Shown here: one piece after another, positions 40,063-53,767 of the stretch
Numbering within the stretch: the first letter of the stretch is position 1
Layout of the letters: every line of letters starts with the position of its first letter
Virus record (IMG/VR): IMGVR_UViG_3300001525_000506
Coordinates: 1 to 64,000 of that record
Source: a virus
Lineage: Duplodnaviria > Caudoviricetes
Reading direction: 5' to 3' (one strand)
Length of the DNA: 64,000 nucleotides
Notes under the pieces: generated by a model
Database searches by the model: none
Told to the model about the DNA's origin: nothing
Seen by the model: the letters and a program-made list of their open reading frames with translations, nothing else
Made by a program: the position numbers and the translations under genes

Positions 40063-40257
40063 TTATTTTTGTTCGGTTTCGATTGGGATATCGGTTTCGA
40101 TATAAATCGGTGCTATCAGACCCCGTTCAAAGAACCAGTCATCAACCCAATCTTCCGCGACGTCGTAATCGTGTTTGTCCTTAGAATTGTGTATCTTTAC
40201 GCCTTTATCGCTCCACCTACGGATATGGTTTGTGTTGAATATTTCGCTTACTATCAT
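40063..40257 (-). CDS. small hypothetical protein
   Basis: Coupled to the LRR gene. Confidence 0.65.
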   Translation of the reverse strand: MIVSEIFNTNHIRRWSDKGVKIHNSKDKHDYDVAEDWVDDWFFERGLIAPIYIETDIPIETEQK

Positions 40258-41540
40258 TATGCTGTCACCTCACTTGCTTTGTATATATAATCCGCATACG
40301 TTGACCAATTCGCTGCTGCTATCCATTCGTCATAGAGCGAATCTGGGACGATGATTTTCGCAATGGCATTTATTCTATAAAAAGCATTGTTTCCCAGAGA
40401 AGGGATGCTCGTAAATTGAGAAAAATTATAATTCATTAGTGAATAACAATTATCAAATACACTGTACCCCAGTTTTGTAACACTATTTGGAATTATCACG
40501 CTTTCTAAAACACTACAACCGCTGAAGGCGCTATAACCAATTTCAGAGGGTGAACCCGAAAACGTAACGTTTGTCAAATTAGAACAAGAAGAAAACACCG
40601 AAGGACCAATAACATTACACGGAATTGTAACACTTGTAAGCGATTTACAATCACCAAAAGCACTACCATAAAGGGACTTTACGTTGTTGTGAATTACTAT
40701 TTCTGACAATGCGATACATTCCATAAAAGCATATGTTTGAATCTCTGTAATATTCTTGCTAATCGCAATGTTTGTCAACGCTCTACATTGCCAGAAAGCA
40801 TTAGTGCCGATGCGTGATATACCCATACCAAGACTCACACTTGTCAATCTATCACAACCTTGAAAAGCATAAAGGGAACCTGTTGTAACGCTGTTAGGGA
40901 TTATTATATGTGTTAATATACGACAAAAACTAAAAGTATGGCTACCAATATCCGTAATCTTATTTGATAATGTTACTGTTGCTAAAGACCAACTAAATCC
41001 AAAAGCATAAGCGCCAATTTCAGTTATATTTGCCAACCTTGCAGTAACACAATAATAATTAAGAGTATTTGTCGATTGCCCAAACAATCCGCTATCCTCG
41101 GACGTTGTCATCGTCGTCCCATCACATTTGATAGTATAATCCCCGTATGTAGTATATGTATGTGTCGTTTCTGTATCACTCGTGCCATCGCCCCAGTCTT
41201 TTGTGCCGTCCATATTAAGCGTCACTGATAATCCCGTAACCTTTGTCAATGTGATATCGAATTCGTTTTGACCGCTCGCCGTAGTGTAAACAGCACCGAC
41301 CATAACGTTATTGTCGGCGATAGTAATTTTATTATCTGTAATTGCTTGCGAGGCGCTCCATTCTTGGAACACCAGTCCTTCGTGAGACGGCGCAGCAGGC
41401 AAATCGAAACTGTCGCCGTTGTTGCCGCGTTTCTCGAGCAATACGGTTCCGTCATAATCTATAACTTTAACCCAAAAATCGCCTGTACCTACGCCATGGT
41501 CGATTTCGGTTTCGGGAATGAGTCGTACTATTTTCGCCAT
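40257..41540 (-). CDS. BspA-type leucine-rich-repeat protein (putative adhesin/RBP)
   Basis: About 8 repeats like ITEIGAYAF..C..LTSVTIPNSV. Confidence 0.9.
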   Translation of the reverse strand: MAKIVRLIPETEIDHGVGTGDFWVKVIDYDGTVLLEKRGNNGDSFDLPAAPSHEGLVFQEWSASQAITDNKITIADNNVMVGAVYTTASGQNEFDITLTKVTGLSVTLNMDGTKDWGDGTSDTETTHTYTTYGDYTIKCDGTTMTTSEDSGLFGQSTNTLNYYCVTARLANITEIGAYAFGFSWSLATVTLSNKITDIGSHTFSFCRILTHIIIPNSVTTGSLYAFQGCDRLTSVSLGMGISRIGTNAFWQCRALTNIAISKNITEIQTYAFMECIALSEIVIHNNVKSLYGSAFGDCKSLTSVTIPCNVIGPSVFSSCSNLTNVTFSGSPSEIGYSAFSGCSVLESVIIPNSVTKLGYSVFDNCYSLMNYNFSQFTSIPSLGNNAFYRINAIAKIIVPDSLYDEWIAAANWSTYADYIYKASEVTA

Positions 41541-47933: not shown

Positions 47934-48413
47934 TTACTTGGCTGTGCCGTTGTTGCTACTGTTGACGATGTTTGTTCCTGTTCCATTCGCAGTTCCACTC
48001 CTTACTACTGTTATTTTCGATATTTTGTCTGTAAGCGCTTTCAATTCGTCCTGTAATGCCTCAAATTCGCCTCTCGGCACATATCCCGACAAATCCACTT
48101 GCGGTTGCGCTTGTTGCGTCGTATCGCTGTTACACTCGGTTATTTCATAGGCTTTGACTTCGAATTGTCCATTCGCGTCAACTTTCTTTTGATACAATAT
48201 CGATTTCTCGTTATCTAAGAATATAAATTCACTATTAGGCGGGAGCGGACGCATACGAACATCCTCGATACCGCTTACGAACGTTTTATTCGTGTTCACT
48301 TGCGACGGGACAGGTTGTTGTTGCGGTGGCATCGAATACGGATTAAACGGATATCCGAACGGTTGCGTCGCTGTCGGCATCGTGTTGAAACTGTAATTGG
48401 GATAATTAGCCAT
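47934..48413 (-). CDS. Pro/Gln-rich protein (cassette gene 1)
   Basis: GGAGG RBS; FVSGIE...FLDNE...YVPRGEFEAL. Confidence 0.8.
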   Translation of the reverse strand: MANYPNYSFNTMPTATQPFGYPFNPYSMPPQQQPVPSQVNTNKTFVSGIEDVRMRPLPPNSEFIFLDNEKSILYQKKVDANGQFEVKAYEITECNSDTTQQAQPQVDLSGYVPRGEFEALQDELKALTDKISKITVVRSGTANGTGTNIVNSSNNGTAK

Positions 48414-48519
48414 TTTCGTTTTCCTCCAGGATTAAAAATATATGTTCATCGTTGTCGAGTACGGTATATATCGAACTCGGCTCGACTTGTATCAATCCTA
48501 ATTCTTCATAAATTTCCAT
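48406..48519 (-). CDS. possible 37-aa acidic peptide (MEIYEELG...)
   Basis: ORF between promoter TTGAAT-17-TACAAT and cassette gene 1. Confidence 0.35.
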   Translation of the reverse strand: MEIYEELGLIQVEPSSIYTVLDNDEHIFLILEENENG

Positions 48520-48612
48520 AGCCGTACCGCCTTGTGATTTCTTTCAACTTGATTGTAAAGCCTGTTTTTGCGAAATTCAATCTACAGTTAATCTACATTT
48601 TCGAAAAAGTTG

Positions 48613-48652
48613 TATAAAAAAACGAGAAAAACCGTCAGAAATGACGGTTAAT
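48613..48652 (-). terminator. terminator of the ncRNA cluster
   Basis: AACCGTCA-TTTC-TGACGGTT then U-rich tail. Confidence 0.8.
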
Positions 48653-48790
48653 CTCGGTTACTATGATATAGAGGAGTTAGTTGCGCCTTTATGCTCGCCT
48701 ACGGTTGCGACCCTTATCTCTCCTATGCAACATTACGGAGTGATTAGTTCCATATAGGACTAATCAAATATAAACGGGCACAAAGGCTTG

Positions 48791-48871
48791 TGGTGGAGCT
48801 GACGAGAATCGAACTCGTTTCTTACGCAGTGCGCTTTGGCTTTATGCGCAATCGAAACCATTCTCAACCCC
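48791..48871 (-). ncRNA. mini-tmRNA: tRNA-like domain only (81 nt)
   Basis: GGGGTTG-AGAATGGTTTCGA-TTGCGCA-(16 nt)-TGCGTAA-GAA-ACGAG-TTCGATT-CTCGT-CAGCTCC-A-CCA; G3:U70, A73, encoded CCA. Confidence 0.8.
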
Positions 48872-48959
48872 ATATTCCGCGCGACTTTTTACATCCACAC
48901 GGAACTCAAATAGGGAGGAATAAAACGTTCCGTATCGCGCTTGTGGATATTGTGGGGTT

Positions 48960-49049
48960 GTAGACGACGTCGGATTTGCACCCAACAATTCAGGTTATTA
49001 GAGGAGAACGTTACCTGCGTGTTTCGTTACACTAATCGTCCACGTCGTT
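48960..49049 (-). ncRNA. degenerate tRNA-like element
   Basis: ACGACGT/ACGTCGT acceptor-like stem, GGTGCAAATCC T-loop-like, CAGGT/ACCTG stem with 17-nt loop; no canonical anticodon loop or CCA. Confidence 0.4.
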
Positions 49050-49058
49050 TGTGCCATT

Positions 49059-49088
49059 ATAATATCACTTCATATATGGCTGTGTCAA
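49059..49088 (-). promoter_or_regulatory. class II promoter of the ncRNA cluster
   Basis: CCCCTC-TTGACA-18-TATTAT. Confidence 0.7.
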
Positions 49089-49530
49089 GAGGGGTTATCA
49101 ATATATTTTTGCAATTTCTTTTTATAACGCCACCTGTCTTGCTTTATCGTTTGCGCGTCAACAAAATATCGTTTCGCAATATCTTCGTCTTGTTCCGTTC
49201 CGCGTATGATATCCCACACGTATTCGATACGGTTATGGCGCACTTTGCTTTCAAGACAAATCGATATGAATTCGTCCTTGGTGCAAGAATAAATCGATAT
49301 CTTCGGCGTTTGAGCCTCTTTTAGCGCGTTTCTGACATCGACATAGTCTTGAATCTTGTACAAAATAAAGCACAAAATCAATTCTACGACCACACCCGAT
49401 AATATGCTGTTATATGCTTGTCGAATAAGAACGCGAACGCAAATATCATCAAGAATATAAAGGCATATAATCCGTACTTGTACGCTAAGAATTTTATGCG
49501 CAATCTTTTAGGTAATAAATTATTTTGCAT
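49085..49530 (-). pseudogene. membrane-anchored HTH regulator split by a 1-nt frameshift near 49408
   Basis: ORF 49384-49530 plus ORF 49085-49393; adding one A joins FDKHIT to SILSGVVVELILCF (TM) and a C-terminal HTH (EDIAKRYFVDAQTIK). Confidence 0.6.
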
Positions 49531-52663: not shown

Positions 52664-53767
52664 TTAGCCAATCTGTGTTCTTATGTATTCTGCCATAAGA
52701 ATAGCATTCGCTGCTTGAACTGTTATAGGGTCATACAAGACTGTGATTGTGACCTGATTGGTATCTGAATTTTGTACGGTACTATAAGCATTATGACAAA
52801 AACAAATAGTTGGGTCGTTTGACATATCGCTCGAAACCAAAGAATAACCTGTATATGATGCCAACGGAGCACCATTTTTTTCATAGGCAATGAAATCACT
52901 TGAAGAAAAGTTTTTCCATTTACTCAAAAAACTATCAATATCGAAACTATCTTTTATTACATAAGTTCCGCAAGTCATTGCGCCCCTAATTGTCCCACTA
53001 CGGACTTCTTGCCCAGTTATTTTACCGTTGAACTCGGCAACGAGATAACCAATTGCTTTGGCATAGCTTCTTCCTGAATATATTAAATTCCAAGCACCAG
53101 CTCGCCCGTTCTGTGGCGTGGTTTTTTGAGAAGATAGCGCACTGTCTTGTAAATTGTTTAGATTTGTATACGAACCGACATCGGTAGTCGTCCCGCAAAT
53201 AACAGTGAACAAATCGTTTAGCACGCGACAAACTATTGATGTAGCGTAACATTGTGTTGCGGGTATTCCAACGACTGTATCCTCTTTTAGAAATGCGCTT
53301 TCGTTTATGCCAAAACAAAACTGCGGGACATTATTGTCGAACGCTACTTGCGCAAGACCAATTACTAATTTTGCGCCATAACTCGTATGTGAGCCAAGTG
53401 CTGCGTATGAAGTATATGCGCCAGTACAATCAAATACATATTCGACCCCTGAATCGTTCCACGGAATATCGCTCCAATATTTGTCGCTGGTAGGTGCAAC
53501 TTGTGTAAACGCCACATAAATGCCGTTAATAACGAAACGTTTATGGTCGCTGTCATAAGACACTTCTTTATCCCACACTCCATAAACAGTGTCGTACTTT
53601 AACAAATAAGCCAATTGGTCAGGGTCGCTAACATCATTTACTGCTGCAACTGTTATCGTGTAGCCGCCAATAGAAGAAAAATCGTTAAATTTACTATCAA
53701 AAAGCATTCTCAACAATCGTCTGCCGAGAACACCAAGACCGTTTATACCAACTTTCAATTCTGCCAA
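52664..53767 (-). CDS. gap: GAPDH (class I) homologue lacking catalytic Cys and His
   Basis: GINGLGVLGR, AVND, YLLKYDTVYG, IPW..SGVEYVFDCTG, GRAGAWNLI, AKAIG...GKITG, LVSSD; ASCTT replaced by PATQC, HAYT by GSYT; TTG start after AAGGAGG. Confidence 0.88.
   Translation of the reverse strand: MAELKVGINGLGVLGRRLLRMLFDSKFNDFSSIGGYTITVAAVNDVSDPDQLAYLLKYDTVYGVWDKEVSYDSDHKRFVINGIYVAFTQVAPTSDKYWSDIPWNDSGVEYVFDCTGAYTSYAALGSHTSYGAKLVIGLAQVAFDNNVPQFCFGINESAFLKEDTVVGIPATQCYATSIVCRVLNDLFTVICGTTTDVGSYTNLNNLQDSALSSQKTTPQNGRAGAWNLIYSGRSYAKAIGYLVAEFNGKITGQEVRSGTIRGAMTCGTYVIKDSFDIDSFLSKWKNFSSSDFIAYEKNGAPLASYTGYSLVSSDMSNDPTICFCHNAYSTVQNSDTNQVTITVLYDPITVQAANAILMAEYIRTQIG

Follow-up and report, generated by a model that had tools for sequence, protein, structure and literature searches.

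The window, by which we mean the whole stretch of 64,000 nucleotides that was analysed, carries at 48871..48791 on the minus strand an 81-nt gene for a tmRNA tRNA-like domain (TLD) without a tag frame, referred to here as mini-tmRNA. This segment matches positions 1-374 of the Rfam tmRNA model RF00023 with 56.9 bits (E 1.2e-19, gathering score 47), and 14 inserted nucleotides in the alignment take the place of the 308 central model positions that comprise the pseudoknots and the tag frame. Pseudoknots PK1-PK4 are absent from mini-tmRNA in this alignment, and with 16 nt between the P2 strands it contains neither a resume codon nor a tag reading frame. The shortest known tmRNA tags comprise 2 codons (PMC11915505). 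The sole in-frame stop, the UAA of UGCGUAA, lies within the P2 helix and is gone in the sister phage described below. A preliminary description of the locus had listed the structural elements of a TLD, and all of them were found where it had placed them, on the minus strand, by direct reading as well as by the RF00023 alignment (Table 1). The E. coli ssrA strings quoted there are also correct, and a direct comparison confirmed that the final 11 nt of E. coli ssrA are identical to the final 11 nt of mini-tmRNA (48791..48801). Mini-tmRNA is a real, well-supported RNA gene.

Both ARAGORN and the Infernal/Rfam models had been suggested for checking the assignment. The latter gave the RF00023 match above the cut-off, whereas ARAGORN remained silent and found neither a tRNA nor a tmRNA in the whole window. 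The possibility of an ordinary tRNA-Ala, raised in the preliminary description, did not hold: in the Rfam clan competition at 48871..48791 the tmRNA match outranks tRNA, a D-stem is absent and the 16-nt loop lacks a U33-NNN-R37 anticodon frame, and together with the negative ARAGORN result this led us to reject a canonical tRNA-Ala. A match to the tmRNA_permuted model (16.6 bits, E 0.4) was also discarded; since this weak match merely re-reads the T-arm and the CCA, we dropped the reading as a two-piece tmRNA. In a covariance model (R1), mini-tmRNA scores 96.5 bits and the TLD of mycobacteriophage DS6A 79.5 bits, and both align in one model.

Table 1. Features of mini-tmRNA and of the predicted transcription unit around it (positions in the window).
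Feature	Position	Strand	Basis
Acceptor stem GGGGUUG/CAGCUCC, 7 bp	48871-48865 with 48801-48795	minus	direct sequence reading
G3:U70 wobble of the acceptor stem	48869:48797	minus	direct sequence reading
Discriminator A and encoded CCA	48794 (A), 48793-48791 (CCA)	minus	direct sequence reading
Stemless D-loop AGAAUGGUUUCGA, 13 nt, ending GGUUUCGA	48864-48852	minus	fits Rfam tmRNA consensus GAu.cuGGaUUCGA
P2-like helix UUGCGCA/UGCGUAA, 7 bp	48851-48845 with 48828-48822	minus	covaries in the family
Apical loop, 16 nt, at the place of pseudoknots and tag frame	48844-48829	minus	direct sequence reading
Linker GAA	48821-48819	minus	consensus is GAC
T-arm ACGAG-UUCGAUU-CUCGU, 5-bp stem	48818-48802	minus	covaries in the family
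Putative sigma-70-type promoter TTGACA-18-TATTAT with TG extension	49059..49088	minus	11/12 consensus matches
Putative intrinsic terminator, 8-bp stem and U tract	48620..48649	minus	sole terminator-like site on this strand in 48300-49500
tRNA-shaped RNA with acceptor, D and T arms	48961..49041	minus	Rfam tRNA 28.0 bits (gathering score 29)
Small structured RNA, C-rich loop CCUCCC, possible pseudoknot pairing	48875..48955	minus	blocks conserved in four relatives
Structured trailer RNA, directly 3' of the CCA	48684..48788	minus	fold energy against shuffles

The source record (75,551 bp, CheckV completeness 100%) is that of a tailed dsDNA phage encoding a primase-helicase, a helicase, a large terminase and tail proteins, and mini-tmRNA is its only tmRNA-like match. 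No close relative was found among 50,697 GenBank phages. Since the nearest cultured-phage proteins (30-37% identical) come from phages of Staphylococcus, Listeria, Enterococcus and Lactobacillus, all Bacillota, the host of this phage is likely a member of this phylum as well. A search with the 81-nt query in 401 Bacillota genomes returned only 3'-end matches of 24-31 nt, so that no donor or host tmRNA was identified among these genomes. In the complete phage genome, ARAGORN called no canonical tRNA gene, an SmpB gene was not found, tyrosine integrase (PF00589) and resolvase (PF00239) gave no match, and neither an RF-1/ArfB domain (PF00472) nor Pth (PF01195) was found. The link to tRNA- or mRNA-cleaving defences that had been drawn earlier for this RNA is unsupported in this genome. 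Two antisense ORFs over the locus on the plus strand (48790-48963 and 48941-49324) match no Pfam family and were dismissed. Apart from the RNA locus, a 367-aa protein in the structural-gene region (52664-53767, minus strand) contains both GAPDH domains (Pfam Gp_dh_N 6e-22, Gp_dh_C 3e-10), and a 427-aa protein adjoining the tail genes (40257-41540, minus strand) carries BspA-type leucine-rich repeats (PF13306, 2.8e-51) and is likely a host-adhesion module.

A sister phage from another metagenome (IMGVR_UViG_3300013947_000035, here G001; 78,008 bp, 100% complete), assembled independently, carries this 81-nt element in syntenic position with 76/81 identical nucleotides (94%). One of the five differences falls into the apical loop and the other four into stems, where all changes preserve pairing: G25:C46 is replaced by A:U in a compensatory double change and G23:U48 by G:C, both in P2, and U5:G73 by U:A. 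The gene neighbouring mini-tmRNA shows 77-80% DNA identity between the window and the sister phage, and blastn detected no similarity within the 0.7-1.2 kb intergenic region outside the 81-nt element. These pair-preserving changes in combination with diverged flanks rule out an assembly collapse as well as a decaying relic, and by the same pattern of substitutions the mini-tmRNA gene is under selection. The suspicion that a full-length ssrA might have been collapsed, which the preliminary description had voiced, is likewise countered by the 81-nt form of this independent assembly.

Besides mini-tmRNA, the intergenic region appears to encode three further structured RNAs, and we predict a non-coding unit of about 410 nt which, from promoter to terminator, would comprise the tRNA-shaped RNA, the small RNA with the C-rich loop, mini-tmRNA and the structured trailer. 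The putative promoter (49088..49059) is located about 180 nt upstream of mini-tmRNA; its hexamers and the TG extension are kept at the equivalent site in G001 and in two more distant relatives (L048 and L050), with diverged spacers, and the terminator tail UUUUCUCGUUUUU is found again in L048. As these relatives keep the promoter hexamers together with the TG and a similar terminator tail, both signals are probably real. The RNAs of the unit would presumably be co-transcribed and then processed through RNase P and 3' trimming.

The tRNA-shaped RNA has a 17-nt pyrimidine-rich loop, AACGUUCUCCUCUAAUA, at the position of the anticodon loop and a T-loop UGCAAAU, and does not encode the CCA. ARAGORN did not call it, no counterpart was detected in the sister phage, and when viral contigs were scanned with a pattern for its relatives, only chance matches came up. 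The small RNA downstream matches no Rfam family. Its blocks AGCGCRAUACG and AAAAANUYGCGC are invariant in four related phages, with counterparts at L040:1203-1290, L050:7428-7515 and L048:6462-6550, and its flanking stem AUCCACA/UGUGGAU covaries, being AUCUACA/UGUAGAU in L050 and GUCGAA/UUCGAC in G001. The loop occurs in the variants CCUCCC, CUCCCC and CUCCCACCC and in this respect resembles the loops of anti-Shine-Dalgarno-type sRNAs. For the region of the trailer (48625-48790), the predicted fold has an energy of -53.4 kcal/mol (z -4.7), which was reached by 0/200 shuffles; the trailer is not conserved in the sister phage. It shows a long-range stem GCCUUUGUGC/GCAUAAAGGC around hairpins, and its 3' strand is similar to a part of the P2/loop sequence of mini-tmRNA (GCAUAAAG..GCGCA).

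In more distant relatives, whose protein from the neighbouring 344-aa gene is 57-64% identical, promoter, small RNA and terminator are all retained. At the syntenic site of four of them (L048-L051), neither a tmRNA nor a tRNA was found. That this site lacks a TLD or tRNA argues that the non-coding cassette is variable and that mini-tmRNA entered the lineage as its cargo, and these relatives lend no support to an in-situ shortening of a full-length gene. As far as synteny can tell, the cassette between two conserved genes shows that the element was acquired already in its mini form.

To see how far this architecture is distributed, the preliminary description had proposed a search of viral databases for tmRNA 5' and 3' motifs in close spacing, and such a search in IMG/VR uncovered 38 loci with a TLD-only architecture. 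A strict pattern, which required 20-50 nt between the 5' and 3' motifs of the TLD and fixed G1-G4, G7 and their partners, accounts for 31 of these, and a relaxed pattern, which left acceptor positions 3-7 and 66-70 free, added seven more together with four chance matches across tandem tRNAs. All family loci scanned against Rfam reach 53-75 bits on RF00023, and many lie inside phage tRNA arrays. In ARAGORN runs covering DS6A, 20 related loci and the remainder of the phage genome, no mini-tmRNA was ever called. Among prokaryotes, the strict pattern was found at only 4 loci in 185,579 species represented by one genome each. Two of these loci belong to Christensenella MAGs that combine a normal ssrA of 390 nt with a mini form of 80 nt; the latter is located on a separate contig, within a tRNA array, and its TLD differs from that of the ssrA in the same MAG. 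In these MAGs the mini form is an extra copy and not a replacement.

The structure is further supported by covariation. In 23 distinct sequences aligned to the covariance model, 97.2% of the pair cells hold a standard pair, compared with 69.2% in shuffles (0/500 shuffles as high), 126 cells are changed on both sides (36.7 in shuffles) and the covariation score is 0.764 (0.189 in shuffles), all measured on an alignment fitted to the same model that was used for it; slid-partner controls paired to 58% at most. All seven pairs of P2 and 4/5 pairs of the T-stem covary, the latter with 100% of its cells paired, and acceptor pairs 5 and 6 covary with four to five pair types. Hence Rfam, the changes in the sister phage and the covariation of the family all back the earlier reading as a complete TLD without a tag frame.

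For the acceptor stem, part of the family invariance is imposed by the search, as the strict pattern fixes G1-G4, G7 and their partners. With a pattern that does not impose G3:U70, this pair was nevertheless present in 6/6 further distinct sequences. G3:U70 together with A73 constitutes the identity of alanyl-tRNA synthetase (AlaRS), and SmpB binds the elbow of the TLD (PMC3968760, PMC3022190). Mini-tmRNA has the complete AlaRS identity set, i.e. a 7-bp acceptor with G3:U70, a discriminator A and a 3' CCA. Since a single U-to-C change would strengthen pair 3:70 and the wobble is kept all the same, the wobble itself appears to be under selection, which in turn points to charging by AlaRS. On these comparative grounds, the family probably has a selected, charged function.

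This gene joins a known but barely studied class of RNAs. The preliminary description was aware of no phage example, but mycobacteriophage DS6A has been in the literature as 'TLD only' since 2009/2014, so that the present case is not the first one. Hudson, Lau and Williams list 'Mycobacterium phage DS6A (TLD only)' (Hudson et al., 2014; PMC4131195), and the statement on DS6A there, citing Mao et al. (2009), is that a DS6A-like molecule acts as a strong inhibitor of tmRNA whether or not it can be charged, perhaps via titration of SmpB. In line with this, the 2025 tmRNA database paper, which likewise has DS6A as 'TLD only', states that the DS6A form expressed in E. coli inhibits the endogenous tmRNA (PMC11915505). 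The DS6A element (NC_023744.1 28478-28560, equal to L036:1501-1583; tmRNA Website tmID 11587 / Phage__Mycobacterium.9) shares with mini-tmRNA the 7-bp acceptor with G3:U70, the stemless D-loop, a P2 helix of 6-7 bp, an apical loop that is A-rich on its 5' side and contains a small hairpin, the 5-bp T-stem with a UUCGAUU loop and the lack of a tag frame. It is located between protein genes, unannotated in RefSeq and uncalled by ARAGORN. In contrast to mini-tmRNA, which scores 56.9 bits and encodes the CCA, the DS6A element remains at 43.2 bits on RF00023, below the cut-off of 47, and ends with ACUA. The hosts differ too, with Mycobacterium for DS6A and probably Bacillota for our phage. Finally, mini-tmRNA, unlike the DS6A element, belongs to a dedicated predicted non-coding unit in common with other structured RNAs; this stand-alone unit, which also comprises the tRNA-shaped RNA and the conserved small RNA, is specific to this phage.

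TLD-only forms also exist outside phages. Jacob et al. reportedly described tmRNAs without a coding sequence (CDS-less) in jakobid mitochondria in 2004. They are known from these mitochondria and from some (Mallomonadaceae) plastids, where the mRNA-like region is lost and the RNA relies on an SmpB that is encoded elsewhere (PMC11915505). As in mini-tmRNA, an alanine-type TLD is kept while the whole mRNA-like region is missing. These organellar forms are, however, the only tmRNA of the organelle, whereas the mini form is an extra copy in the Christensenella MAGs and presumably also in the host of our phage. Full-length phage tmRNAs, as mycobacteriophage PegLeg gp91, those of Bxz1-like phages and the two-piece tmRNA of Melnitz (PMC9004378), often adjoin tRNA genes and have homologous TLD ends, and a blastn search of mini-tmRNA against full-length phage tmRNAs matched the 3' 36-47 nt. 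In contrast to mini-tmRNA with its 308 missing model positions, these RNAs have about 400 nt with pseudoknots and a tag frame. A like design was used in the TLD fragments for co-crystals with SmpB (Gutmann et al., 2003; Bessho et al., 2007), which, in the descriptions of the constructs in PMC3022190 and PMC3968760, consist of the acceptor, T-arm, D-loop and a capped P2a stub as found here; according to the same descriptions, such laboratory fragments bind SmpB 1:1. They were engineered, whereas mini-tmRNA is a natural gene under selection. 

As the most probable function, to which we assign a probability of about 0.6, we propose that mini-tmRNA, dependent on host SmpB and probably alanylated, competes with the host tmRNA and would thereby lower SsrA tagging during infection. 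Trans-translation is the main ribosome-rescue and quality-control route of bacteria. In the proposed sequence of events, host RNA polymerase would use the unit's own consensus promoter to transcribe about 410 nt of non-coding RNA, and tRNA-processing enzymes would excise mini-tmRNA, presumably with RNase P cutting at G1 and the 3' end being trimmed back to the encoded CCA. Once charged with alanine by host AlaRS, the RNA would associate with SmpB of the host (and with EF-Tu), competing with the full-length host tmRNA for SmpB and stalled ribosomes; as a net outcome, host trans-translation and tagging would be suppressed during infection. Because the recognition elements for AlaRS and SmpB are kept and the phage has no recognizable SmpB of its own, charging, binding to host SmpB and competition are to be expected, and because resume codon and tag frame are missing, the SsrA degradation tag cannot be added. 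Specific point mutations in the TLD may abolish binding of SmpB; these play no part in our argument.

The existence of the gene, its structure and conservation and its lack of a tag frame are direct observations, and the proposed function fits the behaviour of the DS6A-type molecule as far as it is described in the relevant statements of PMC4131195 and PMC11915505. In particular, the inhibitory outcome would be expected by analogy with that published experiment, which was done in E. coli as a heterologous system. On the other hand, since the cited inhibition does not require chargeability, the conserved G3:U70 is not explained by a pure sponge model, and the many phages carrying full-length tmRNAs imply that blocking trans-translation is not uniformly useful to phages. 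The linker GAA, a departure from the consensus GAC, also speaks against the proposal.

The main alternative, which we consider possible, albeit doubtful, is a productive rescue without tagging. Alanyl-mini-tmRNA together with host SmpB and EF-Tu would enter the stalled ribosome, accept the nascent chain and add one alanine; host ArfA/RF2, ArfB, drop-off with Pth or further rounds of the same reaction would resolve the complex, so that ribosomes become available again and phage proteins translated from damaged mRNAs are spared SsrA-directed proteolysis. Such a role would make sense of G3:U70, A73 and CCA being strictly conserved while neighbouring acceptor pairs vary, as this set is superfluous for an SmpB sponge. 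It would also agree with the persistence of CDS-less tmRNAs together with SmpB in organelles, where they are thought to help with incomplete mRNAs (PMC11915505), and with the frequent location of the gene within tRNA arrays of other phages, i.e. among translation-supporting genes. However, no release-factor-like protein (PF00472) and no Pth (PF01195) with which the reaction could be completed was recognized in our phage, and the one experiment reported in the statements on DS6A gave inhibition and not rescue. Competition and rescue without tagging differ only in the events after ribosome entry; the conserved alanine identity favours such an entry, and the reported experiment favours inhibition. 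An extended version, which is speculative and which we regard as unlikely, combines a charged, ribosome-entering RNA that recycles ribosomes on cleaved mRNAs (e.g. those of an RNase-based defence) without marking for degradation with co-expression, from one non-coding operon, of a second tRNA mimic lacking an anticodon and of an sRNA whose loop is anti-Shine-Dalgarno-like. If true, the non-coding unit would be a small "translation-manipulation RNA cassette".

The setting of the TLD among three other structured RNAs in one promoter-terminator unit, and the relatives which retain the unit and the sRNA without any TLD, might also be taken to mean that the fold merely serves as an RNase P or 3'-end signal that frees the flanking small RNAs, the excised TLD itself having no role. 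We consider this improbable, as this TLD-only RNA is found in many unrelated settings, tRNA arrays among them, as tmRNA-specific features that a processing signal does not need (stemless D-loop, G3:U70, P2 helix) are kept, and as the TLD is 94% identical in the sister phage between entirely different flanks. Least probable is an element without any function, be it a relic of ssrA, an attP-type fragment serving integration into the ssrA gene of the host or an assembly collapse. It is true that ssrA-integrating phages carry the ssrA 3' end beside an integrase; in mycobacteriophage Validus, for example, the attP fragment matches the T-arm and the 3' strand of the acceptor. But such fragments hold the 3' part only, whereas in mini-tmRNA both the 5' and the 3' half are present and paired, and neither a tyrosine integrase nor a resolvase was found in the complete phage genome. 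A relic or a collapse is at odds with an independent assembly that has the same 81-nt form with compensatory changes, and a relic also with the strong, conserved promoter that we predict. The relic, attP and artefact readings are thus contradicted.

A phage RNA that hijacks SmpB, as in the competition with host tmRNA that we favour, would represent a compact, RNA-only takeover of trans-translation. Dozens of uncultured phages share the class, whose helices covary strongly and whose alanine identity is conserved. Since ARAGORN called no copy that was tested and DS6A falls below the Rfam cut-off, routine annotation overlooks these RNAs. The present instance adds a clean stand-alone case in a phage without tRNA genes and a genetic setting in which two conserved genes enclose a variable cassette of non-coding RNAs.

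Further observations concern individual members of the family and their possible sources. In a Saccharibacteria MAG (G007, 0.5 Mb), the best tmRNA match is a 73-nt TLD-only form with 76.8 bits (L044:3324-3396), and a full-length ssrA was not found in this MAG, which is possibly incomplete, or the contig may be viral. The ssrA genes of the two Christensenella MAGs (L054, G005:C2:17121-17510; L053, G006:C13:35421-35809) start with GGGC instead of GGGG and have the T-loops UGCAAGU/UGCAAAU. Their P2a ends (UCGAUUGCG...CGUAAGAC) are similar to those of mini-tmRNA from our phage, and this likeness may be taken as a weak hint at a Clostridia-type origin. At four other loci (L003:46-126, L021:337-416, L076 and L077), the 5' acceptor strand is GGGGUGG or GGGAUGG and faces CACCUCC/CAUCUCC, so that in a fixed 7-bp register two or three positions stay unpaired or a C is bulged out. 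As they recur in independent sequences, these irregular acceptors are probably real.
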